Source: Escherichia coli (GTDB taxonomy: Bacteria; Pseudomonadota; Gammaproteobacteria; Enterobacterales; Enterobacteriaceae). Taken from it: a stretch of DNA of 64,000 nucleotides. The position numbers and the translations under genes are program-made. The DNA lies in NCBI RefSeq assembly GCF_045037415.1, contig NZ_CP173438.1; one strand, given 5' to 3'. The notes under the pieces are model-generated. The model made no database searches. It was not told where the DNA came from and saw only the letters and a list, made by a program, of their open reading frames with translations. This document shows, piece by piece, positions 2,788 through 15,695 of the stretch (the stretch's first letter is position 1; each line of letters begins with the position of its first letter).

Positions 2788-3795
<1,008 letters not shown>

Positions 3796-4124
3796 CTATT
3801 TGTTAGTGAATAAAAGGTTGCCTGTAAAATTACAAAAACCTTACGCAGCGTCAAGCGGAATCGTGTCAATCATTGCGACAAATCAATCCTGTGCCTAAGC
3901 ATTACGCGACTGACTCGCCTCACTCTTCCTTTGGGCTTGAGACCACATGGGGTCGGCGCCCCGAATTTTAAAGGGCAATTACGATAAAAATGTGATTTTC
4001 ATCACGATTTAGGTGCAGCCATTTCGTCGAGATCAAGTTTAGGACAAAATTTTGCCAGTTGGTGTTAATGTTTTGTTAGAATCAGTCACGTAATGTGAGC
4101 ACGATTAAAGTGAGATGTGAGCAA

Positions 4125-4538
4125 ATGGCTAATAAACCTTCGGCAGAAGAACTGAAAAAAAATTTGTCCGAGATGCAGTTCTACGTGACGCAGAATCATG
4201 GGACAGAACCGCCATTTACGGGTCGTTTACTGCATAACAAGCGTGACGGCGTATATCACTGTTTGATCTGCGATGCCCCGCTGTTTCATTCCCAAACCAA
4301 GTATGATTCCGGCTGTGGCTGGCCCAGTTTCTACGAACCGGTGAGTGAAGAATCTATTCGTTATATCAAAGACTTGTCACATGGAATGCAGCGCATAGAA
4401 ATTCGTTGCGGTAACTGCGATGCCCATCTGGGCCATGTCTTTCCTGACGGGCCGCAGCCAACGGGCGAACGTTATTGTGTTAACTCTGCTTCTTTACGCT
4501 TCACTGATGGCGAAAACGGCGAAGAAATCAACGGTTGA
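4125..4538 (+). CDS. msrB: peptide methionine-R-sulfoxide reductase MsrB
   Basis: 137 aa, two CxxC zinc motifs and C-terminal catalytic Cys; track ORF start at 4095 is an extension. Confidence 0.93.
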
Positions 4539-4579
4539 AAAAACGATTCAGCAACTTATTCCACAGGAGCGGAAAAATT

Positions 4580-4852
4580 ATGAATCTTGATGACATTATC
4601 AACAGCATGACGCCTGAGGTATACCAGCGTTTGTCGACCGCCGTTGAACTGGGGAAATGGCCTGATGGCGTTACGTTGACCGAGGAACAAAAAGAGAACT
4701 GCCTGCAACTGGTGATGCTGTGGCAAGCCCGCCATAATACCGAAGCACAGCATATGACAATTGACACAAATGGTCAGATGGTCATGAAGAGCAAACAGCA
4801 GTTAAAAGAAGATTTTGGTATCTCAGCAAAGCCTATTGCCATGTTTAAGTAA
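4580..4852 (+). CDS. yeaC: DUF1315-family protein YeaC
   Basis: 90 aa MNLDDIINSMTPEVYQRL...; immediately downstream of msrB. Confidence 0.8.
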   Translation: MNLDDIINSMTPEVYQRLSTAVELGKWPDGVTLTEEQKENCLQLVMLWQARHNTEAQHMTIDTNGQMVMKSKQQLKEDFGISAKPIAMFK

Positions 4853-5111
4853 GTGGTTTATCCCCTTTTTGCCGCGGTTATAAAGGGGATAGCCAACAAT
4901 GACCCCACGACTCATCTCAATTATCTCGCCCCGACCTGGCTAAGTCCCAGTCCGATCTCTTGCAGTCGCGTTCACACCTGAATGACTTCTCCTGAACTTA
5001 AGTCTCAGGCCTATTTGGCCGGGAATCCCTCTCGAATTTGCTCTTTTTGCGTCCCGCCTTCCATCAACCTGTAACAACCCCAGCCATTTTCTGCGTAATT
5101 GTGATCTAAGT

Positions 5112-5143
5112 TGTAAAACGCAGATCATTATCTGTGTTTTACA
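5112..5143 (+). promoter_or_regulatory. 13-bp-arm palindrome about 80 bp upstream of ydjL (candidate operator or RNA hairpin)
   Basis: TGTAAAACGCAGA-tcatta-TCTGTGTTTTACA, one mismatch, followed by TTGACC -35-like hexamer. Confidence 0.35.
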
Positions 5144-5221
5144 GATTTAATGTTGACCTCAAAAATCATGTGGGTAAGTATGATGACCATCTAAGCAAAA
5201 CAAAACACAGAGGATGACGCA

Positions 5222-6298
5222 ATGAAAGCACTGGCTCGGTTTGGCAAGGCTTTTGGTGGCTACAAGATGATTGATGTCCCACAACCCATTTGTGGCCCGG
5301 AAGATGTCGTGATTGAAATTAAAGCCGCGGCAATCTGCGGCGCAGACATGAAGCACTACAATGTCGATAGCGGTTCGGATGAGTTTAACTCTATCCGCGG
5401 CCATGAGTTCGCAGGTTGTATTGCGCAGGTTGGTGAAAAAGTCAAAGACTGGAAAGTGGGGCAACGCGTCGTGTCGGATAACAGCGGTCACGTTTGCGGC
5501 GTTTGCCCGGCCTGTGAACAAGGTGATTTTCTGTGTTGTACAGAAAAAGTAAACCTTGGTCTGGATAACAATACCTGGGGCGGTGGTTTTTCCAAATATT
5601 GTCTTGTTCCTGGTGAAATTCTCAAAATTCATCGTCATGCGTTGTGGGAAATCCCTGATGGTGTTGATTATGAGGACGCAGCCGTACTTGACCCTATCTG
5701 TAATGCCTATAAATCCATCGCGCAGCAATCGAAATTCCTTCCAGGTCAGGATGTGGTCGTCATCGGCACTGGCCCACTCGGGCTGTTCTCCGTACAAATG
5801 GCGCGGATTATGGGGGCGGTAAATATCGTCGTCGTTGGTCTGCAAGAAGATGTAACGGTCCGCTTCCCGGTTGCAAAAGAACTGGGTGCGACGGCAGTAG
5901 TAAATGGTTCTACCGAAGATGTGGTGGCACGCTGCCAGCAAATTTGTGGCAAAGACAATCTGGGGCTGGTGATTGAATGCTCCGGTGCCAATATCGCATT
6001 GAAACAAGCCATCGAAATGCTCCGCCCGAATGGGGAAGTAGTACGCGTTGGAATGGGCTTCAAACCTCTTGATTTCTCGATTAATGACATTACCGCCTGG
6101 AACAAAAGCATCATTGGGCATATGGCCTATGACTCCACTTCATGGCGTAACGCTATCAGGCTATTAGCCAGCGGCGCTATCAAAGTCAAACCGATGATCA
6201 CGCATCGTATCGGCCTGTCGCAATGGCGCGAAGGGTTTGATGCGATGGTCGATAAAACTGCAATCAAAGTGATCATGACTTACGACTTTGATGAATAA
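5222..6298 (+). CDS. ydjL: Zn-dependent alcohol/sugar dehydrogenase YdjL
   Basis: 358 aa MDR-family with GHE..G and Cys-rich zinc motifs. Confidence 0.85.
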   Translation: MKALARFGKAFGGYKMIDVPQPICGPEDVVIEIKAAAICGADMKHYNVDSGSDEFNSIRGHEFAGCIAQVGEKVKDWKVGQRVVSDNSGHVCGVCPACEQGDFLCCTEKVNLGLDNNTWGGGFSKYCLVPGEILKIHRHALWEIPDGVDYEDAAVLDPICNAYKSIAQQSKFLPGQDVVVIGTGPLGLFSVQMARIMGAVNIVVVGLQEDVTVRFPVAKELGATAVVNGSTEDVVARCQQICGKDNLGLVIECSGANIALKQAIEMLRPNGEVVRVGMGFKPLDFSINDITAWNKSIIGHMAYDSTSWRNAIRLLASGAIKVKPMITHRIGLSQWREGFDAMVDKTAIKVIMTYDFDE

Positions 6299-6324
6299 CT
6301 ACTCTCCTGAAGGAACGTTATCGC

Positions 6325-7704
6325 ATGGAACAGATAACAAAACCGCATTGTGGTGCACGGCTGGATCGCTTACCGGATTGCCGCTGGCATTCGTCGATGT
6401 TTGCCATCGTCGCGTTTGGCCTGCTTGTCTGCTGGAGTAATGCCGTTGGTGGCTTGATCCTCGCGCAGCTGAAAGCGTTGGGCTGGACAGATAATTCCAC
6501 CACTGCCACATTCTCAGCAATCACGACCGCCGGAATGTTTCTCGGTGCGCTGGTGGGCGGCATCATCGGTGACAAAACCGGTCGCAGAAATGCGTTTATC
6601 CTCTATGAGGCCATTCATATTGCCTCGATGGTTGTCGGTGCTTTCTCACCGAATATGGATTTCCTTATTGCCTGCCGTTTTGTGATGGGCGTTGGGCTGG
6701 GAGCTTTACTGGTTACACTGTTTGCTGGTTTCACCGAATATATGCCCGGAAGAAATCGCGGAACGTGGTCCAGTCGGGTTTCCTTTATTGGTAACTGGTC
6801 ATATCCGCTCTGTTCATTGATTGCGATGGGACTCACGCCGCTGATTAGTGCAGAGTGGAACTGGCGGGTACAACTGCTTATCCCTGCAATATTGTCACTT
6901 ATCGCTACGGCGCTGGCCTGGCGCTACTTTCCTGAATCCCCGCGCTGGCTGGAATCGCGCGGACGTTATCAGGAAGCCGAGAAAGTCATGCGGAGTATAG
7001 AAGAAGGCGTCATACGCCAGACGGGTAAACCTTTGCCGCCTGTGGTTATTGCTGATGACGGTAAAGCACCACAAGCGGTGCCGTATTCAGCCTTACTGAC
7101 AGGAGTATTACTGAAACGCGTGATATTAGGCTCTTGTGTGCTGATTGCCATGAACGTTGTGCAGTACACACTAATTAACTGGTTGCCAACGATATTCATG
7201 ACCCAGGGAATTAATTTAAAAGACTCGATTGTTTTAAATACCATGAGTATGTTTGGCGCGCCATTTGGTATTTTTATTGCCATGCTGGTGATGGATAAAA
7301 TTCCGCGTAAAACAATGGGTGTGGGGCTATTAATCCTGATTGCGGTGCTCGGATATATCTATTCACTGCAAACCAGTATGTTGCTCATAACGCTGATTGG
7401 TTTCTTCCTGATTACTTTCGTCTATATGTACGTTTGCTATGCCTCGGCAGTGTATGTCCCTGAGATCTGGCCGACAGAGGCCAAACTCCGTGGCTCCGGT
7501 CTGGCGAATGCGGTAGGGCGAATCAGTGGTATTGCCGCACCTTATGCCGTTGCAGTGCTGCTCAGTAGTTATGGCGTAACGGGAGTCTTTATTCTTCTGG
7601 GGGCTGTTTCAATTATTGTCGCAATTGCTATCGCCACCATTGGAATTGAAACCAAAGGTGTCTCCGTTGAAAGTTTAAGTATTGATGCAGTAGCCAATAA
7701 ATAA
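6325..7704 (+). CDS. ydjK: MFS sugar transporter YdjK
   Basis: 459 aa, about 12 TM segments, MFS signature GxxxDxxGRR. Confidence 0.85.
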   Translation: MEQITKPHCGARLDRLPDCRWHSSMFAIVAFGLLVCWSNAVGGLILAQLKALGWTDNSTTATFSAITTAGMFLGALVGGIIGDKTGRRNAFILYEAIHIASMVVGAFSPNMDFLIACRFVMGVGLGALLVTLFAGFTEYMPGRNRGTWSSRVSFIGNWSYPLCSLIAMGLTPLISAEWNWRVQLLIPAILSLIATALAWRYFPESPRWLESRGRYQEAEKVMRSIEEGVIRQTGKPLPPVVIADDGKAPQAVPYSALLTGVLLKRVILGSCVLIAMNVVQYTLINWLPTIFMTQGINLKDSIVLNTMSMFGAPFGIFIAMLVMDKIPRKTMGVGLLILIAVLGYIYSLQTSMLLITLIGFFLITFVYMYVCYASAVYVPEIWPTEAKLRGSGLANAVGRISGIAAPYAVAVLLSSYGVTGVFILLGAVSIIVAIAIATIGIETKGVSVESLSIDAVANK

Positions 7705-7720
7705 TACTGGTGGATTCAAA

Positions 7721-8764
7721 ATGAAAAATTCAAAAGCAATGTTGCAGGTGCCGGGCACAATGAAAATTATTTCAGCAGAAATACCTGTACCTAAAGAAGA
7801 TGAAGTTTTGATTAAAGTGGAATATGTCGGTATTTGTGGTTCAGATGTACATGGTTTTGAATCAGGCCCGTTTATTCCTCCTAAAGACCCAAATCAAGAA
7901 ATTGGCCTGGGTCATGAATGCGCCGGGACGGTTGTGGCTGTGGGAAGCCGCGTGCGCAAATTTAAACCGGGGGATCGGGTAAATATCGAACCTGGCGTTC
8001 CTTGCGGTCACTGTCGTTACTGTCTGGAAGGCAAATATAACATCTGCCCGGACGTTGATTTTATGGCGACACAACCCAACTACCGCGGCGCATTAACGCA
8101 CTATCTGTGTCATCCGGAGAGCTTTACTTACAAACTGCCAGACAATATGGACACGATGGAAGGGGCGCTGGTGGAGCCTGCCGCAGTCGGGATGCATGCC
8201 GCGATGCTGGCAGATGTTAAACCGGGTAAGAAGATAATTATTCTGGGAGCGGGTTGTATTGGTTTGATGACGTTGCAAGCGTGCAAATGCCTGGGAGCAA
8301 CGGAAATTGCCGTCGTTGATGTGCTGGAAAAACGTCTGACAATGGCGGAACAGCTCGGCGCGACAGTGGTTATTAACGGCGCAAAAGAAGACACTATTGC
8401 ACGCTGTCAGCAATTTACCGAAGACATGGGCGCAGATATTGTTTTTGAAACAGCGGGTTCTGCGGTCACCGTTAAACAGGCACCTTATCTGGTCATGCGC
8501 GGCGGTAAAATTATGATTGTTGGTACTGTACCCGGCGATTCGGCAATCAATTTCCTCAAAATCAATCGCGAAGTCACTATCCAGACGGTATTCCGCTATG
8601 CCAATCGTTATCCGGTCACGATTGAAGCTATTTCTTCAGGGCGATTCGATGTGAAATCGATGGTGACGCATATTTACGATTATCGGGATGTACAACAGGC
8701 ATTTGAAGAGTCAGTTAACAACAAACGCGACATTATTAAAGGCGTTATTAAAATTAGCGATTAA
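7721..8764 (+). CDS. ydjJ: Zn-dependent sugar dehydrogenase YdjJ
   Basis: 347 aa MDR-family, GICGSD..GHE motif. Confidence 0.85.
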   Translation: MKNSKAMLQVPGTMKIISAEIPVPKEDEVLIKVEYVGICGSDVHGFESGPFIPPKDPNQEIGLGHECAGTVVAVGSRVRKFKPGDRVNIEPGVPCGHCRYCLEGKYNICPDVDFMATQPNYRGALTHYLCHPESFTYKLPDNMDTMEGALVEPAAVGMHAAMLADVKPGKKIIILGAGCIGLMTLQACKCLGATEIAVVDVLEKRLTMAEQLGATVVINGAKEDTIARCQQFTEDMGADIVFETAGSAVTVKQAPYLVMRGGKIMIVGTVPGDSAINFLKINREVTIQTVFRYANRYPVTIEAISSGRFDVKSMVTHIYDYRDVQQAFEESVNNKRDIIKGVIKISD

Positions 8765-8784
8765 TTAATACGGGAGAACAGAAC

Positions 8785-9621
8785 ATGCTCGCAGATATCA
8801 GATATTGGGAAAACGATGCCACAAATAAACATTATGCAATTGCCCATTTTAACGTATGGAATGCAGAAATGTTGATGGGCGTTATCGACGCAGCCGAAGA
8901 AGCGAAATCACCGGTTATTATTTCTTTTGGCACAGGTTTTGTCGGCAACACCTCATTTGAAGATTTCTCTCACATGATGGTATCAATGGCACAAAAAGCA
9001 ACGGTGCCGGTAATAACTCATTGGGATCATGGTCGGAGTATGGAGATTATTCATAACGCCTGGACTCATGGTATGAATTCATTAATGCGTGATGCTTCTG
9101 CATTTGATTTCGAAGAAAATATTCGTTTAACCAAAGAGGCTGTTGATTTCTTCCATCCGCTGGGTATTCCGGTAGAGGCGGAATTAGGGCATGTCGGTAA
9201 TGAAACCGTTTATGAGGAAGCGCTGGCAGGCTATCACTATACCGATCCTGACCAGGCGGCTGAATTTGTTGAACGTACGGGCTGTGACTCATTGGCTGTC
9301 GCCATCGGCAACCAGCATGGGGTTTATACGTCAGAGCCACAATTGAACTTTGAGGTCGTCAAACGCGTACGCGATGCTGTTTCTGTTCCGCTGGTTTTGC
9401 ATGGCGCATCAGGGATCAGTGATGCCGACATTAAAACTGCAATTTCGTTGGGTATTGCGAAAATCAACATTCATACGGAGCTCTGTCAGGCCGCAATGGT
9501 AGCAGTGAAAGAAAACCAGGATCAGCCTTTCCTGCATTTAGAACGTGAAGTGCGTAAAGCTATAAAAGAACGGGCATTGGATAAAATTAAACTGTTCGGT
9601 TCTGATGGCAAAGCGGAATAA
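8785..9621 (+). CDS. ydjI: class II aldolase YdjI
   Basis: 278 aa, FbaA/GatY-like class II aldolase sequence. Confidence 0.85.
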   Translation: MLADIRYWENDATNKHYAIAHFNVWNAEMLMGVIDAAEEAKSPVIISFGTGFVGNTSFEDFSHMMVSMAQKATVPVITHWDHGRSMEIIHNAWTHGMNSLMRDASAFDFEENIRLTKEAVDFFHPLGIPVEAELGHVGNETVYEEALAGYHYTDPDQAAEFVERTGCDSLAVAIGNQHGVYTSEPQLNFEVVKRVRDAVSVPLVLHGASGISDADIKTAISLGIAKINIHTELCQAAMVAVKENQDQPFLHLEREVRKAIKERALDKIKLFGSDGKAE

Positions 9622-9625
9622 TAAT

Positions 9626-10573
9626 ATGGATAATCTCGACGTTATTTGTATAGGTGCCGCTATTGTTGATATTCCATTGCAACCGGTCAGTAAAAATATC
9701 TTTGATGTGGATTCTTATCCTCTTGAAAGAATCGCAATGACCACCGGGGGTGATGCAATAAATGAAGCAACAATTATTTCTCGTCTGGGCCATCGCACAG
9801 CATTAATGAGTCGTATTGGTAAAGATGCCGCAGGGCAATTTATTCTCGACCATTGCCGCAAAGAGAATATTGATATTCAAAGCCTGAAGCAGGACGTCAG
9901 CATAGATACCTCTATTAACGTTGGACTGGTGACGGAGGATGGCGAGCGGACCTTTGTCACAAACCGTAACGGCAGTCTGTGGAAATTGAATATTGACGAT
10001 GTTGATTTTGCGCGGTTTTCTCAGGCGAAATTATTATCACTGGCCAGTATTTTCAACAGTCCTCTATTGGATGGTCGAGCGCTAACAGAAATTTTTACGC
10101 AAGCTAAAACCCGGCAGATGATTATCTGTGCCGATATGATCAAACCGCGGTTGAATGAAACGCTGAATGATATTTGCGAAGCATTGAGTTATGTCGATTA
10201 TCTGTTTCCTAATTTTGCCGAGGCAAAATTACTCACCGGGAAAGAGACACTGGATGAAATTGCTGACTGCTTTCTTGCGTGCGGCGTAAAAACGGTGGTG
10301 ATTAAAACGGGTAAAGACGGCTGCTTTATCAAGCGTGGTGACATGACGATGAAGGTGCCGGCGGTCGCAGGAATAACCGCTATCGACACCATTGGTGCGG
10401 GCGATAACTTTGCTTCAGGTTTTATTGCAGCACTGTTAGAAGGCAAAAATCTGCGAGAATGCGCACGCTTTGCCAATGCAACGGCGGCTATCTCGGTTCT
10501 AAGCATCGGCGCCACCACCGGTGTAAAAAACAGAAAGCTGGTCGAACAATTGCTGGAAGAATACGAAGGATAA
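9626..10573 (+). CDS. ydjH: PfkB-family sugar kinase YdjH
   Basis: 315 aa from MDNLDV; ribokinase-like GAGD motif; track ORF start 9605 is an extension. Confidence 0.85.
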   Translation: MDNLDVICIGAAIVDIPLQPVSKNIFDVDSYPLERIAMTTGGDAINEATIISRLGHRTALMSRIGKDAAGQFILDHCRKENIDIQSLKQDVSIDTSINVGLVTEDGERTFVTNRNGSLWKLNIDDVDFARFSQAKLLSLASIFNSPLLDGRALTEIFTQAKTRQMIICADMIKPRLNETLNDICEALSYVDYLFPNFAEAKLLTGKETLDEIADCFLACGVKTVVIKTGKDGCFIKRGDMTMKVPAVAGITAIDTIGAGDNFASGFIAALLEGKNLRECARFANATAAISVLSIGATTGVKNRKLVEQLLEEYEG

Positions 10574-10582
10574 TGAAGGCAA

Positions 10583-11563
10583 ATGAAAAAGATACCTTTA
10601 GGCACAGCGGATATAACGCTTTCGCGAATGGGGTTGGGTACATGGGCTATTGGCGGCGGTCCTGCATGGAATGGCGATCTCGATCGACAAATATGCATTG
10701 ATACGATTCTTGAAGCCCATCGTTGCGGCATTAACCTGATTGATACTGCGCCAGGATATAACTTTGGCAATAGTGAAGTTATCGTTGGTCAGGCGTTAAA
10801 AAAACTGCCCCGTGAACAGGTTGTAGTAGAAACCAAATGCGGCATTGTCTGGGAACGAAAAGGAAGTTTATTCAACAAAGTTGGCGATCGGCAGTTGTAT
10901 AAAAACCTTTCTCCGGAATCTATCCGCGAAGAGGTAGAAGCCAGCTTGCAACGTCTGGGTATTGATTACATCGATATCTACATGACGCACTGGCAGTCGG
11001 TGCCGCCATTTTTTACGCCGATAGCTGAAACTGTTGCAGTGCTTAATGCGTTAAAGGCCGAAGGGAAAATTCGCGCTATAGGCGCTGCTAACGTCGATGC
11101 TGACCATATCCGCGAGTATCTGCAACATGGTGAACTGGATATTATTCAGGCGAAATACAGTATTCTCGACCGGGCGATGGAAAACGAACTGCTGCCGCTA
11201 TGTCGTGATAATGGCATTGTGGTTCAGGTTTATTCCCCGCTAGAGCAGGGATTGTTGACCGGCACCATCACGCGTGATTACGTTCCGGGCGGCGCTCGGG
11301 CAAATAAAGTCTGGTTCCAGCGTGAAAACATGCTGAAAGTGATTGATATGCTTGAACAGTGGCAGCCACTCTGTGCTCGTTATCAGTGCACAATTCCCAC
11401 TCTGGCACTGGCGTGGATATTAAAACAGAGTGATTTAATCTCCATTCTTAGTGGGGCTACTGCGCCGGAACAGGTACGTGAAAATGTCGCGGCACTGAAT
11501 ATCAACTTATCGGATGCAGACGCAACATTGATGAGGGAAATGGCAGAGGCCCTGGAGCGTTAA
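10583..11563 (+). CDS. ydjG: aldo-keto reductase YdjG
   Basis: 326 aa AKR-family sequence. Confidence 0.85.
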   Translation: MKKIPLGTADITLSRMGLGTWAIGGGPAWNGDLDRQICIDTILEAHRCGINLIDTAPGYNFGNSEVIVGQALKKLPREQVVVETKCGIVWERKGSLFNKVGDRQLYKNLSPESIREEVEASLQRLGIDYIDIYMTHWQSVPPFFTPIAETVAVLNALKAEGKIRAIGAANVDADHIREYLQHGELDIIQAKYSILDRAMENELLPLCRDNGIVVQVYSPLEQGLLTGTITRDYVPGGARANKVWFQRENMLKVIDMLEQWQPLCARYQCTIPTLALAWILKQSDLISILSGATAPEQVRENVAALNINLSDADATLMREMAEALER

Positions 11564-11589
11564 ATACTCAACACGATTCACCTCTGTTT

Positions 11590-11617
11590 CTGTGAAAACT
11601 GTGATGAAAATCTGTGA
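11590..11617 (+). promoter_or_regulatory. three direct CTGTGA repeats upstream of ydjF (candidate regulator binding sites)
   Basis: cTGTGAaaa / cTGTGAtga / cTGTGAttc spaced 9 and 13 bp, about 85-110 bp upstream of ydjF start. Confidence 0.3.
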
Positions 11618-11699
11618 TTCAAACAGGTTATTTTGAAAGTAAACATCGGTTATGCGATAATTGCGCTAATGTGATGTAAAAAGATACAGGGGTGTAATC

Positions 11700-12458
11700 G
11701 TGGCGGCAAAAGACAGGATTCAGGCAATTAAGCAAATGGTTGCCAACGATAAAAAGGTGACAGTCTCAAATTTGAGTGGGATTTTTCAGGTAACCGAAGA
11801 AACCATTCGCCGCGATCTTGAGAAGTTGGAAGATGAAGGCTTTTTGACCAGAACCTATGGTGGTGCTGTTTTAAATACAGCGATGTTGACGGAGAATATC
11901 CATTTTTATAAGCGCGCTTCATCGTTTTATGAAGAGAAGCAGCTTATTGCACGCAAGGCACTACCCTTTGTCGACAATAAAACCACCATGGCAGCCGATT
12001 CCAGTAGTACCGTAATGGAATTGCTCAAATTGTTACAGGACCGTAGTGACCTGACGTTGCTAACCAACTCGGCGGAAGCGATTCATGTTCTGGCTCAGTC
12101 AGAAATTAAAGTCGTTTCAACGGGTGGGGAACTAAACAAAAATACACTTTCACTGCAAGGAAGAATTACTAAAGAGATCATCAGCCGCTACCATGTCGAT
12201 ATCATGGTAATGAGTTGTAAAGGTCTTGATATTAACAGCGGCGCGCTGGACTCTAATGAAGCGGAAGCTGAAATCAAAAAGACAATGATCCGTCAGGCGA
12301 CAGAAGTTGCGTTATTGGTTGATCACTCTAAGTTTGATCGCAAAGCTTTTGTCCAGTTAGCTGACTTTAGTCATATTAATTACATAATAACTGATAAATC
12401 ACCGGGTGCAGAGTGGATAGCATTTTGCAAAGACAATAATATCCAGCTGGTGTGGTAA
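11700..12458 (+). CDS. ydjF: DeoR-family transcriptional regulator YdjF (GTG start)
   Basis: 252 aa, N-terminal HTH and DeoR C-terminal sugar-binding domain. Confidence 0.85.
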   Translation: MAAKDRIQAIKQMVANDKKVTVSNLSGIFQVTEETIRRDLEKLEDEGFLTRTYGGAVLNTAMLTENIHFYKRASSFYEEKQLIARKALPFVDNKTTMAADSSSTVMELLKLLQDRSDLTLLTNSAEAIHVLAQSEIKVVSTGGELNKNTLSLQGRITKEIISRYHVDIMVMSCKGLDINSGALDSNEAEAEIKKTMIRQATEVALLVDHSKFDRKAFVQLADFSHINYIITDKSPGAEWIAFCKDNNIQLVW

Positions 12459-12575
12459 TTTAAGCACACATTGTCAATATTATTTGTTCCTGCGCCTGGA
12501 AATAAAATGATGATAAAGATGCGGCAAGTGAATTTGCCGCAATTGCTACCTTTTTTAGCAAATCCGAGGCACCCA

Positions 12576-13934
12576 ATGGAACAATATGATCAAATTGGCG
12601 CAAGACTGGACCGCTTGCCTTTGGCCCGGTTTCATTATCGTATATTTGGTATAATAAGCTTTAGTCTGTTATTAACGGGGTTTTTGAGTTACTCCGGTAA
12701 TGTCGTCTTAGCAAAGCTGGTAAGCAATGGATGGTCAAATAATTTCCTCAATGCCGCCTTTACCTCGGCATTAATGTTTGGTTATTTCATCGGCTCTCTT
12801 ACCGGTGGGTTTATTGGTGACTACTTTGGGCGGCGCAGGGCGTTTCGCATAAATCTTCTCATCGTCGGTATTGCGGCAACAGGGGCCGCTTTTGTCCCTG
12901 ATATGTACTGGCTCATCTTCTTTCGCTTCCTGATGGGAACAGGAATGGGGGCGCTGATTATGGTTGGCTATGCCTCATTTACGGAGTTTATCCCCGCGAC
13001 GGTGCGTGGAAAATGGTCCGCGCGGCTCTCATTTGTTGGAAACTGGTCGCCCATGCTGTCTGCGGCGATAGGCGTGGTGGTTATCGCTTTTTTTAGTTGG
13101 CGGATAATGTTTCTGCTGGGCGGTATTGGCATACTGTTAGCCTGGTTTCTCTCAGGTAAATACTTTATTGAGTCGCCACGATGGTTGGCAGGGAAAGGGC
13201 GAATCGCAGGTGCAGAAAGCCAACTTCGTGAAGTAGAGCAGCAAATTGAAAGAGAGAAGAGTATTCGTTTACCCCCGCTTACTTTGAACCAGAGCAACAG
13301 CAAGGTTAAGGTAATCAAGGGTACCTTCTGGCTCCTGTTTAAAGGGGAAATGTTACGACGTACATTAGTCGCGATTACTGTTTTAATTGCAATGAACATT
13401 TCGCTTTATACCATCACCGTATGGATGCCGACCATATTTGTTAACTCCGGCATTGATGTCGATAAATCAATATTAATGACCGCTGTTATTATGATTGGCG
13501 CTCCGGTAGGGATATTTATTGCGGCATTAATTATTGATCATTTCCCTCGTCGATTATTTGGTTCCGCCTTACTTATTATTATTGCCGTGTTAGGCTATAT
13601 CTATTCAATTCAGACAACAGAGTGGGCGATTTTAATCTATGGCCTGGTGATGATCTTCTTTTTATACATGTATGTTTGCTTCGCGTCGGCGGTTTATATC
13701 CCGGAACTTTGGCCAACGCATTTACGCCTGCGTGGTTCGGGTTTCGTTAATGCCGTAGGACGGATCGTCGCAGTCTTCACGCCCTATGGCGTTGCGGCAT
13801 TATTAACACATTATGGGTCGATCACGGTGTTTATGGTGCTTGGTGTCATGTTAGTGCTCTGTGCGCTGGTTCTCTCCATTTTTGGCATCGAAACGCGGAA
13901 GGTGTCGCTGGAAGAGATTTCTGAGGTGAATTAA
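12576..13934 (+). CDS. ydjE: MFS transporter YdjE
   Basis: 452 aa from MEQYDQIG; paralogous to ydjK; track ORF start 12471 is an extension. Confidence 0.8.
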   Translation: MEQYDQIGARLDRLPLARFHYRIFGIISFSLLLTGFLSYSGNVVLAKLVSNGWSNNFLNAAFTSALMFGYFIGSLTGGFIGDYFGRRRAFRINLLIVGIAATGAAFVPDMYWLIFFRFLMGTGMGALIMVGYASFTEFIPATVRGKWSARLSFVGNWSPMLSAAIGVVVIAFFSWRIMFLLGGIGILLAWFLSGKYFIESPRWLAGKGRIAGAESQLREVEQQIEREKSIRLPPLTLNQSNSKVKVIKGTFWLLFKGEMLRRTLVAITVLIAMNISLYTITVWMPTIFVNSGIDVDKSILMTAVIMIGAPVGIFIAALIIDHFPRRLFGSALLIIIAVLGYIYSIQTTEWAILIYGLVMIFFLYMYVCFASAVYIPELWPTHLRLRGSGFVNAVGRIVAVFTPYGVAALLTHYGSITVFMVLGVMLVLCALVLSIFGIETRKVSLEEISEVN

Positions 13935-13984
13935 ATCTTTCGTTGATGGCGTCAATTACCAGATGTATCACTGATGTGTTTTAT

Positions 13985-14019
13985 CTGGCCTACAATGCCA
14001 GTACAGAATTGTAGGCCAG
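13985..14019. terminator. hairpin between convergent ydjE and pncA
   Basis: CTGGCCTACAAT...ATTGTAGGCCAG 12-bp inverted repeat. Confidence 0.5.
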
Positions 14020-14026
14020 CGTAAAA

Positions 14027-14668
14027 TTACTCCTGCGTTTCTTCCCAGTCTGCCAGCGTATATAGCGTTGCCCCAGCTGCTGACATTTCCATAAACGCGT
14101 GCGCACTGTCCTGTGGCTGGATATTTACGCCACGACAACCATCGGTAATCACGTTCACCTTATAGCCTAACTGTAAAGCGTCCAGCACGGTAAACTTAAC
14201 GCAATAGTCAGTAGCCAGACCCATAACGATCAATTCATTGATTACATGAGCGCGCAACCAGTCATCGAGCGCAGTTTTCTGCCGACGACCGTTATCAAAA
14301 AAGGCACTGTAACTGTCAACTAAAGGATTTTCGCCTTTATGGAACACCGCTGCGATCGCTTTTTGCTTCAGTAACGGATGTAATTGTGCGCCTTCACTGT
14401 TCTGCACACAGTGATCGGGCCAGAAGGTTTGTGGCAAACCGTCGAGTTGGCCTGGCGTATAAGGCTCTACACCGTGCTGACTGGCAAAACTGCCGTGATT
14501 CGCCGGATGCCAGTCCTGACTGGCGATAACTGCTTCACCGCGCGACTGGCACCAGTCAATCAGGCGGTTAGCGACATCCACCGTACTGTCACCTTCCGGC
14601 ACGGCGAGCGCGCCACCAGCACAGAAATCATTTTGTAAATCGACCAGTAACAGGGCGCGAGGGGGCAT
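14027..14668 (-). CDS. pncA: nicotinamidase/pyrazinamidase PncA
   Basis: 213 aa MPPRALLLVDLQNDFC... isochorismatase-fold nicotinamidase. Confidence 0.9.
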   Translation of the reverse strand: MPPRALLLVDLQNDFCAGGALAVPEGDSTVDVANRLIDWCQSRGEAVIASQDWHPANHGSFASQHGVEPYTPGQLDGLPQTFWPDHCVQNSEGAQLHPLLKQKAIAAVFHKGENPLVDSYSAFFDNGRRQKTALDDWLRAHVINELIVMGLATDYCVKFTVLDALQLGYKVNVITDGCRGVNIQPQDSAHAFMEMSAAGATLYTLADWEETQE

Positions 14669-14678
14669 TGCAGTCTCC

Positions 14679-15695
14679 TTAATCATCCGGCGTCAGTTCG
14701 CCACGCAGGTTTTGGCTCATGGCCTTGCGAATGGTTTCAGTATCAAGTTTCTGGCTAAGCAGGTAATGCAGTTTGGTTAGCGTGGCTTCTACAGTCATAT
14801 CTGCACCGCCAATAACGCCGGCATGGGCGAGGGCGTTACCGGTGGCATAACCACCCATGTTCACTTTACCGGACATACATTGTGTCAGGTTGACCACCAC
14901 AATACCGCGATCGCTGGCTTCTTGTAATTCCTGCAGGAAGGCTTTGTTTTGTGGCGCATTACCCACGCCATATGAGCGCAGAATCAATGCTTTCACAGGT
15001 TGGCGCAGAAAATTGCGCACGACGTCAGCAGAAATCCCCGGATAAATCGTCACTACGCCAATTGGTTGCGGCGTGATTGGATGAACGATCAATTCCCCTT
15101 CGCCGTGCGGGGCGGGTGGCGTATTCAAACGACGAATATGGATACCTGCTTCCAGTAACGGAGGAAGGTTTGGAGAGGCAAACGCATCAAAACCATCGGC
15201 ATGGGCTTTGGTGGTTCGGTTGCCACGATACAGTCGATTATTAAAAAAGAGAGTTACTTCGTTGATAGGATAATTCGCCGCAACGTACAACGCATTCAGC
15301 AGATTAATTTGTCCGTCAGAGCGTAACTCAGCCAGCGGGATTTGTGACCCTGTCACAATGACCGGTTTACTGAGATTCTCGAGCATGAACGACAGTGCAG
15401 AGGCGGTATACGCCATCGTGTCTGTGCCGTGCAGAATGACAAAACCATCATAGTCGTCATAGTGCGCTTTAATATCTTCAGCAATATGCTGCCAGTCTTC
15501 TGGCGTCATATCAGAAGAATCCATCAATGGCGTATATTCATGAATGGTGAAATCTGGCATCTCCGGGCGATGGAATTCCGGCATCAGCGCCAGTTGGCGC
15601 TGTAGATGACCTGACACCGGAATATAACCCTGCTCGGAACGCTGCATCCCGATGGTCCCGCCCGTGTAGGCGACGTAAATTGATTTCTTTTGCAT
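14679..15695 (-). CDS. ansA: cytoplasmic L-asparaginase I
   Basis: 338 aa MQKKSIYVAYTGGTIGM...; asparaginase TGGTIG motif. Confidence 0.93.
   Translation of the reverse strand: MQKKSIYVAYTGGTIGMQRSEQGYIPVSGHLQRQLALMPEFHRPEMPDFTIHEYTPLMDSSDMTPEDWQHIAEDIKAHYDDYDGFVILHGTDTMAYTASALSFMLENLSKPVIVTGSQIPLAELRSDGQINLLNALYVAANYPINEVTLFFNNRLYRGNRTTKAHADGFDAFASPNLPPLLEAGIHIRRLNTPPAPHGEGELIVHPITPQPIGVVTIYPGISADVVRNFLRQPVKALILRSYGVGNAPQNKAFLQELQEASDRGIVVVNLTQCMSGKVNMGGYATGNALAHAGVIGGADMTVEATLTKLHYLLSQKLDTETIRKAMSQNLRGELTPDD

Follow-up and report, generated by a model that had tools for sequence, protein, structure and literature searches.

Rho-dependent termination and a probable protective 3' stem-loop at the junction of yeaC and ydjL in Escherichia coli

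How transcription of the msrB-yeaC unit ends in Escherichia coli is a question raised by the DNA behind yeaC, where a strong stem-loop devoid of a U-tract directly follows the stop codon and a long noncoding stretch leads to the next gene, ydjL. The locus is considered here within a window of 64,000 nucleotides (the whole stretch of DNA analysed; NCBI RefSeq assembly GCF_045037415.1, contig NZ_CP173438.1), to which all coordinates refer unless K-12 is named. The genes concerned and the spacer are the following.

2788-3792, (-) strand: gapA, in the upstream neighbourhood of msrB-yeaC.
Ending at 4538, (+) strand: msrB.
4580-4852, (+) strand: yeaC (DUF1315), final gene of the msrB-yeaC unit, from the list of open reading frames and the RefSeq annotations of strain SK1144 and K-12.
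4853-5221: yeaC-ydjL spacer, 369 bp, between the yeaC stop codon (4850-4852) and the ydjL ATG (5222).
5222-6298, (+) strand: ydjL, followed by ydjK and the remaining operon up to ydjE.
14027-14686, (-) strand: pncA, convergent with the ydj segment.

The positions of the stop and start codons bear out the 369-bp spacer that a first-pass annotation had delimited at 4853-5221. Its sequence is 100% identical to that of strain SK1144 and its orientation is reversed relative to K-12, in which the spacer has the same length (369 bp, NC_000913.3 1861333-1861701), 95.7% identity and the same predicted fold. Coordinates are converted as window position = 4853 + (1861701 - K-12 position). The RefSeq records of SK1144 and K-12 carry no annotated feature in the spacer, which as a whole is not unusually structured (fold z = -0.55). 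The absence of a coding assignment, also claimed by the first-pass annotation, holds for its small ORFs as well. Indeed, none of the five ORFs that lie within the spacer or extend into it matches a Pfam or NCBIfam family, and within E. coli they show mostly amino-acid replacements, start-codon losses or gained stops and are broken in sister Escherichia species. A small protein gene is not supported, given this lack of family match and of ORF conservation.

The inverted repeat first seen at about 4860-4890 after the yeaC stop is real and is made of TATCCCCTTT (4859-4868) and AAAGGGGATA (4882-4891), which form 10 perfect pairs around a 13-nt loop. In the RNA, it is extended by a lower stem in the predicted structure given below.

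4854-4895, (+) strand: RNA hairpin with an upper stem 4860-4868/4882-4890, a lower stem 4854-4858/4891-4895, a bulged U4859 and a 13-nt loop.

This hairpin comprises 14 pairs and one bulge, with a folding energy of -19.1 kcal/mol (z = -2.36), and a fold as good is obtained in 5 of 200 shuffles. When perfect inverted repeats are counted with a minimum arm of 10 bp and a maximum loop of 15 nt, six loci of the 64-kb window qualify, the yeaC hairpin included, versus a mean of 0.67 in Markov-simulated sequences. At least three of the five others stand directly behind the end of a gene, the gapA terminator and the ydjE/pncA hairpin among them. Like the yeaC hairpin, the latter (CTGGCCTACAAT...ATTGTAGGCCAG, window 13985-14019) lacks a U-tract on both strands and combines conserved stems with a loop that varies, here between strains with and without the ydj island.

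A stable hairpin located a few nucleotides past a stop codon, with a stem length and an energy in the usual range, recalls an intrinsic terminator. However, the yeaC hairpin departs from such terminators by its 13-nt loop, the lack of an upstream A-tract, its Rho-dependent read-through (see below) and, above all, the sequence that follows it. Only one T is present among the 20 nt 3' of the stem (GCCAACAATGACCCCACGAC), in line with the missing U-run of the first-pass annotation, and a U-tract is absent on either strand. The intrinsic-terminator scan does not call the hairpin, which is missing from the terminator-like sites, and this role was rejected.

Published K-12 data locate an RNA 3' end at the foot of this structure. 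Term-seq identified a 'primary' yeaC 3' end at K-12 1861655(-), with counts of 51,796 and 96,402, reported in three rows of a supplementary file including three tabs, one per growth condition (Adams et al. 2021, eLife 10:e62438). The same study detected a bicyclomycin-sensitive Rho region downstream. Both map onto the window as follows.

4899, (+) strand: steady-state yeaC RNA 3' end (...GCCAACAA-3'), from K-12 1861655(-).
5366, (+) strand: peak coordinate of the bicyclomycin-sensitive Rho region, from K-12 1861188(-), 144 nt into ydjL, with a resolution of +/-800 nt.

The discrete 3' end sought between 4850 and 5220 is therefore present in K-12, at 4899, 4 nt after the hairpin's last paired base. 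No second Term-seq 3' end is listed from K-12 1861200 to 1861799 on either strand (Adams et al. 2021), and for ydjL itself none was seen by Term-seq in LB at an OD of 0.4 (preprint version of Adams et al.).

The dependence of read-through on Rho is documented by two types of experiments. First, DirectRNA-seq reads counted in windows of 800 nt, one upstream and one downstream of the junction, amount to 224 and 7 in untreated cells and to 147 and 95 with bicyclomycin, i.e., a coverage drop across the yeaC-ydjL junction of 32-fold that is reduced to 1.5-fold by the inhibitor, with a Rho score of 20.7 and p = 1.8e-24 (Adams et al. 2021). Second, a lacZ fusion under a constitutive promoter, carrying window 4745-6298, is increased more than 2-fold in the rhoR66S mutant (Adams et al. 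2021). The fused fragment begins with GCACAGCATATGACAATTGAC at window 4745, inside yeaC, and stops at the end of ydjL. All these termination experiments were conducted in strain K-12, whose spacer is 95.7% identical to that of the window. As the Rho windows span 800 nt, the peak lies in ydjL and the reporter includes the full ydjL ORF, termination could fall partly or mainly within untranslated ydjL RNA. The Rho-dependent termination and/or RNA-processing site envisaged by the first-pass annotation is supported by the Term-seq 3' end, the bicyclomycin effect and the rhoR66S reporter.

The RNA immediately downstream of the hairpin has the properties of a loading region for Rho.

4895-5075, (+) strand: C-rich, G-poor, unstructured tract, putative Rho loading (rut) region, from its composition and fold.

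This tract contains 63 C and 30 G (C/G = 2.1), placing it in the top 0.03% of windows of the same size on the same strand of the window, and 78-nt windows within it reach a C/G of 2.4 with about 20 YC dimers. Its predicted fold is no more stable than those of its shuffled versions (z = +0.89) and leaves the first 36 nt unpaired. Such a composition is as expected for a rut site, judging from the nucleotide counts. Since C/G is below 1 in the first 250 nt of ydjL, the tract of the spacer is the sole rut-like one upstream of the Rho peak. In strain KTa005 (locus L071, 2619-3386), an IS1 interrupts the spacer about 119 nt from its start (window ~4971), within the rut-like tract, and a deletion extends from the insertion point to inside ydjE.

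Taken together, the (msrB-)yeaC mRNA very likely ends in a protective stem-loop, the hairpin at 4854-4895, and the spacer that follows very likely acts as a Rho-dependent terminator. RNA polymerase leaving yeaC would transcribe past the hairpin, which does not terminate by itself because it has no U-tract, and then enter the untranslated, C-rich, G-poor and unstructured RNA of 4895-5075. Rho would load there and probably release the transcript at scattered points in the distal spacer and early ydjL. The heterogeneous tails would then be trimmed by the 3'-to-5' exonucleases PNPase and RNase II back to the hairpin, which would account for the sharp 3' end at 4899. As a result, the yeaC message would be stable, and the normally silent, gut-induced ydjLKJIHG operon would presumably be insulated from msrB-yeaC transcription. 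The hairpin, the position of the 3' end, the Rho dependence of read-through and the excess of C over G are established by the K-12 experiments together with the present analysis.

Elements of this kind are already known from the literature, as are the main measurements for the yeaC-ydjL site. Rho-dependent transcripts were found to end just past stable, U-poor stem-loops directly followed by sequence with more C than G, their tails being trimmed by PNPase and RNase II (Dar and Sorek 2018, NAR 46:6797). The yeaC site displays the four features of this class, namely a stem-loop just upstream of a sharp 3' end, no U-tract, rut-like RNA with C exceeding G downstream, and read-through that rises with bicyclomycin and in a Rho mutant (published K-12 data, ~800 nt resolution). 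No essential difference separates it from the class, trimming by PNPase and RNase II being attributed to yeaC by analogy.

REP/BIME elements that stabilise mRNA 3' ends offer another comparison, as they are extragenic palindromes blocking 3' exonucleases behind a gene, the role proposed for the yeaC hairpin. REP elements were reportedly likewise proposed, by Peters et al. in 2012, as protective 3' stem-loops at Rho-dependent terminators. Unlike them, the yeaC hairpin is single copy and has no REP consensus. Its assignment to a repeat family was discarded, as it occurs in one place per genome in 4333 genomes and gives one match in the 64-kb window.

An endonucleolytic cut could yield the same 3' end. 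The end at 4899 would then result from cleavage of a longer transcript by RNase E or RNase III, whatever the site and mode of termination. Indeed, Term-seq is blind to the difference between termination and processing, and the majority of 3' ends are stated to be neither clearly intrinsic nor Rho-dependent and to be likely processing products (Adams et al. 2021). This origin is nevertheless quite improbable at yeaC, as an end just 4 nt beyond the foot of a stable hairpin is the signature of a stalled exonuclease rather than of a single-stranded AU-rich RNase E site, read-through at the junction is strongly Rho-dependent, and the architecture fits the class of Dar and Sorek (2018).

The evolution of the spacer further distinguishes its parts. 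Across nine diverse E. coli lineages, spacer identity ranges from 95 to 100%, with most polymorphism in the loop (15%) and the rut tract (13%) and least in the palindrome close to ydjL (3%) and the ydjL promoter (6%). In these lineages, only three stem positions vary: the bulged base, one A-U pair changed to G-U and one U-A pair changed to U-G. In E. whittamii and Escherichia sp. E1V33, yeaC likewise adjoins ydjL. The hairpin arms are identical at 24 of 25 positions between E. coli and both of these species, whereas identity at the four-fold degenerate sites of the flanking genes drops to 45-65% in either comparison, which makes this hairpin a worked example of arms held identical against a background of extensive divergence. 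The loop centre and the region 4898-5037 are unrelated between E. coli and E. whittamii or E1V33 (25-55% identity). The same fold is predicted in the nine E. coli lineages and the two sister species, from -14 to -22 kcal/mol (-14 to -18 in the sisters).

In the hairpin alignment, 96.8% of cells are paired and two lower-stem pairs are altered on both sides. Covariation is restricted to these two pairs; no fully compensatory change occurs in the upper stem, where conservation is at the sequence level. On the evidence of these alignments, the stem is shown to be under purifying selection. The poor conservation that the first-pass annotation had set as an argument against a functional site is thus not found for the stem, kept in Escherichia, whereas the loop and the rut tract diverge in sequence. 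In the latter, the bias of C over G is retained without sequence conservation, with 51/24 in E. whittamii and 48/25 in E1V33. Farther away, C. amalonaticus, Intestinirhabdus and UBA3516 also have yeaC before ydjL, with a different U-less hairpin after the yeaC stop that is followed, in two of the three, by a tract with more C than G, most clearly in UBA3516.

The conservation of both arms in three Escherichia species, around an 11-nt centre free to vary, would also suit a DNA site bound by a dimeric protein. Yet, the variants A-U to G-U and U-A to U-G would break the dyad symmetry of such a site, whereas they preserve pairing in the (+) strand RNA only, favouring an RNA structure. In addition, a mapped RNA 3' end lies at the foot of the repeat, ~290 bp separate the repeat from the ydjL promoter region downstream, and the segment that accompanies ydjL does not include it, so that a role as a protein-binding DNA repeat is barely conceivable. 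An attC-like element and an inversion of the loop were also considered for this pattern of conserved arms and variable loop. On inspection, attC core sites are not matched by the arms, and reverse-complementing the E. coli loop does not give that of E. whittamii. The pattern is more simply explained by near-saturated neutral divergence.

The distal part of the spacer has another history. Outside Escherichia, only spacer positions ~240-369 (~130 bp) find a match by blastn in 39 ydjL upstream regions, whatever gene precedes, and the following elements are recognised there.

5092-5221, (+) strand: ydjL-proximal regulatory region, common to ydjL across genera.
5100-5106: TGTGATC, invariant across 19 genera in the alignment.
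5112-5143: palindrome, in which 5112-5125 pairs with 5130-5143 (93% complementarity).
5153-5158: TTGACC, putative -35 hexamer.
5175-5181: TAAGTAT, putative -10 element.
5210-5214: Shine-Dalgarno sequence GAGGA.

The alignment of 19 genera reveals as conserved elements TGTGATC, the palindrome core CAGAT..ATCTG, TTGAC, TAAGTAT and the Shine-Dalgarno region. From this comparison, the final ~130-180 bp of the spacer are ydjL's own promoter and operator region. Such a module agrees with the reported behaviour of the ydjL promoter, inactive in vitro and induced in the mouse gut (PMC6561318). The ydjL promoter palindrome of the first-pass annotation is confirmed at 5112-5143. As the terminator scan flags 5111-5144, the palindrome was considered as an intrinsic terminator for yeaC and rejected, having no Term-seq 3' end and accompanying ydjL in genomes without yeaC upstream. 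A motif AAAAC[G/A]CAGA occurs three times, twice in the palindrome upstream of the putative -35 (5112-5143) and once in the ydjL 5' UTR (5201-5213). These motifs look like operator sites, for which the DeoR-type YdjF is a candidate regulator.

This proximal module bears on another interpretation, in which the spacer would be a long regulated 5' leader of ydjL, carried by an mRNA starting at about 4745, with Rho acting as a conditional attenuator relieved by some signal. Adams et al. (2021) indeed cloned the 'ydjL 5' UTR + ORF' from window 4745 and placed ydjL among the genes with premature Rho termination. As their constructs begin at dRNA-seq start sites, the 5' end of the published 'ydjL 5' UTR' construct suggests a start inside yeaC, and a good -10 (CATAAT) stands 7 nt upstream.

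4710-4745, (+) strand: putative yeaC-internal sigma-70 promoter, with TGGTGA (4710-4715), a 17-nt spacer, CATAAT (4733-4738) and a presumed start at G4745.

A 16-nt complementarity (88%) between 5125-5140 and 5202-5217 could also mask the ydjL ribosome-binding site in long transcripts only. This pairing, predicted from the letters, would hide the Shine-Dalgarno sequence only in read-through transcripts coming from upstream; it reaches only about 7 bp in Citrobacter and may therefore be a by-product of the repeated operator motif. Against a leader function, Citrobacter, Klebsiella, Raoultella, Yokenella, Budvicia, Serratia and others conserve only ~130 bp upstream of ydjL. Since this stretch carries the TTGAC -35 and the palindrome regardless of the upstream gene, ydjL has a proximal promoter. 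Moreover, divergence in the supposed leader (4898-5037) reaches or exceeds that of neutral sequence, and the leader includes no match to a riboswitch or leader family and no conserved upstream ORF. A regulated ydjL leader is accordingly rated unlikely. Premature Rho termination in 5' leaders, described by Adams et al. (2021) for sugE, mdtJ, cfa and others, with ydjL listed, was recognised with the same data set and reporter, and Rho likewise acts upstream of or within ydjL. However, the yeaC-ydjL element lies at the end of the upstream gene, with a conserved ydjL promoter downstream, which favours termination of the upstream unit over attenuation of ydjL. This suggests that what is listed for ydjL under 'premature Rho termination in 5' UTR/ORF' is better understood as the msrB-yeaC terminator.

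The unannotated small RNA considered as an option by the first-pass annotation finds no support. Such a trans-acting RNA, released from the yeaC 3' end as a discrete species of ~155 nt (4745-4899) or less, would take advantage of the possible start at 4745 and of the very abundant, hairpin-protected 3' end, and the sequence conservation of the stem exceeds the needs of pairing. An abundant 3' end at the end of an mRNA and a possible ORF-internal promoter are also what yeaC shares with 3'UTR-derived sRNAs such as CpxQ, MicL and UhpU. Unlike these, the yeaC RNA has no intrinsic terminator, no U-tail for Hfq and, apart from the stem, no conserved single-stranded seed in its untranslated part, and no Hfq or ProQ association was found in the tables searched. 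Indeed, the sole entry for yeaC in the RIL-seq sRNA-prediction tables is a CDS node (sRNA probability 0.00045), with no 3'UTR or IGR node, and neither the Hfq-CLASH tables nor the EHEC ProQ supplement mentions yeaC. The ProQ FinO domain is reported to recognise RNAs with Rho-independent terminators, which counts against this option. No relevant Rfam match exists either, a permissive scan of 4000-6000 giving only chance snoRNA and lncRNA matches (E > 4), and the Cappable-seq supplements hold no coordinates within the yeaC-ydjL interval. A trans-acting sRNA is thus highly improbable.

The ydjLKJIHGFE segment (window ~4888-13962) is accessory, being missing together with the spacer in about 1097 of 5425 complete E. 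coli genomes (~20%). In island-minus E. coli, examined at three loci (L003, L004 and L005), yeaC faces pncA across ~160 bp. Homology to the window extends ~35 nt past the yeaC stop in these strains, and both hairpin arms are degenerate. The hairpin is thus lost in E. coli devoid of the ydj island, so it is not indispensable for yeaC expression, and it is maintained only where ydjL lies downstream. An island boundary exactly at the yeaC stop codon is ruled out by the residual homology, which local alignment follows through about 4887. Between yeaC and pncA, the island-minus strains carry a long AT-rich hairpin (ATACTTGTTAG...CTGACAAGTAT, locus L003 ~4318-4378) with no counterpart in the window.

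A function connected with ydjL, and not just the capping of an mRNA, would be in keeping with the conservation of the stem only in ydj-island genomes and with a masking of the ydjL ribosome-binding site restricted to read-through transcripts. Along this line, either a stable functional RNA of ~155 nt (~4745 to 4899) or a conditional bypass of Rho that feeds msrB-yeaC transcription into the ydj sugar-acid operon can be imagined, both being very doubtful. Transcription of msrB-yeaC is linked to oxidative stress and iron, and the ydj operon is gut-induced.

The ydj cluster itself is widespread. A scan with YdjL retrieves it in many Enterobacterales as well as in Firmicutes and Actinobacteria at 77-85% protein identity, including Lachnospiraceae, Eubacteriaceae, Enterococcus alishanensis, Anaerococcus, Megamonas and Atopobiaceae (loci L027-L044). 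This level of identity points to recent transfer of the cluster between phyla among gut bacteria.

Beyond annotation, the significance of the yeaC-ydjL site is small. The 369-bp spacer can be described as three parts, with a protective 3' hairpin, a rut tract whose composition is constrained and whose sequence is free, and a mobile promoter/operator module, the last of which moves with the horizontally transferred ydj cluster.
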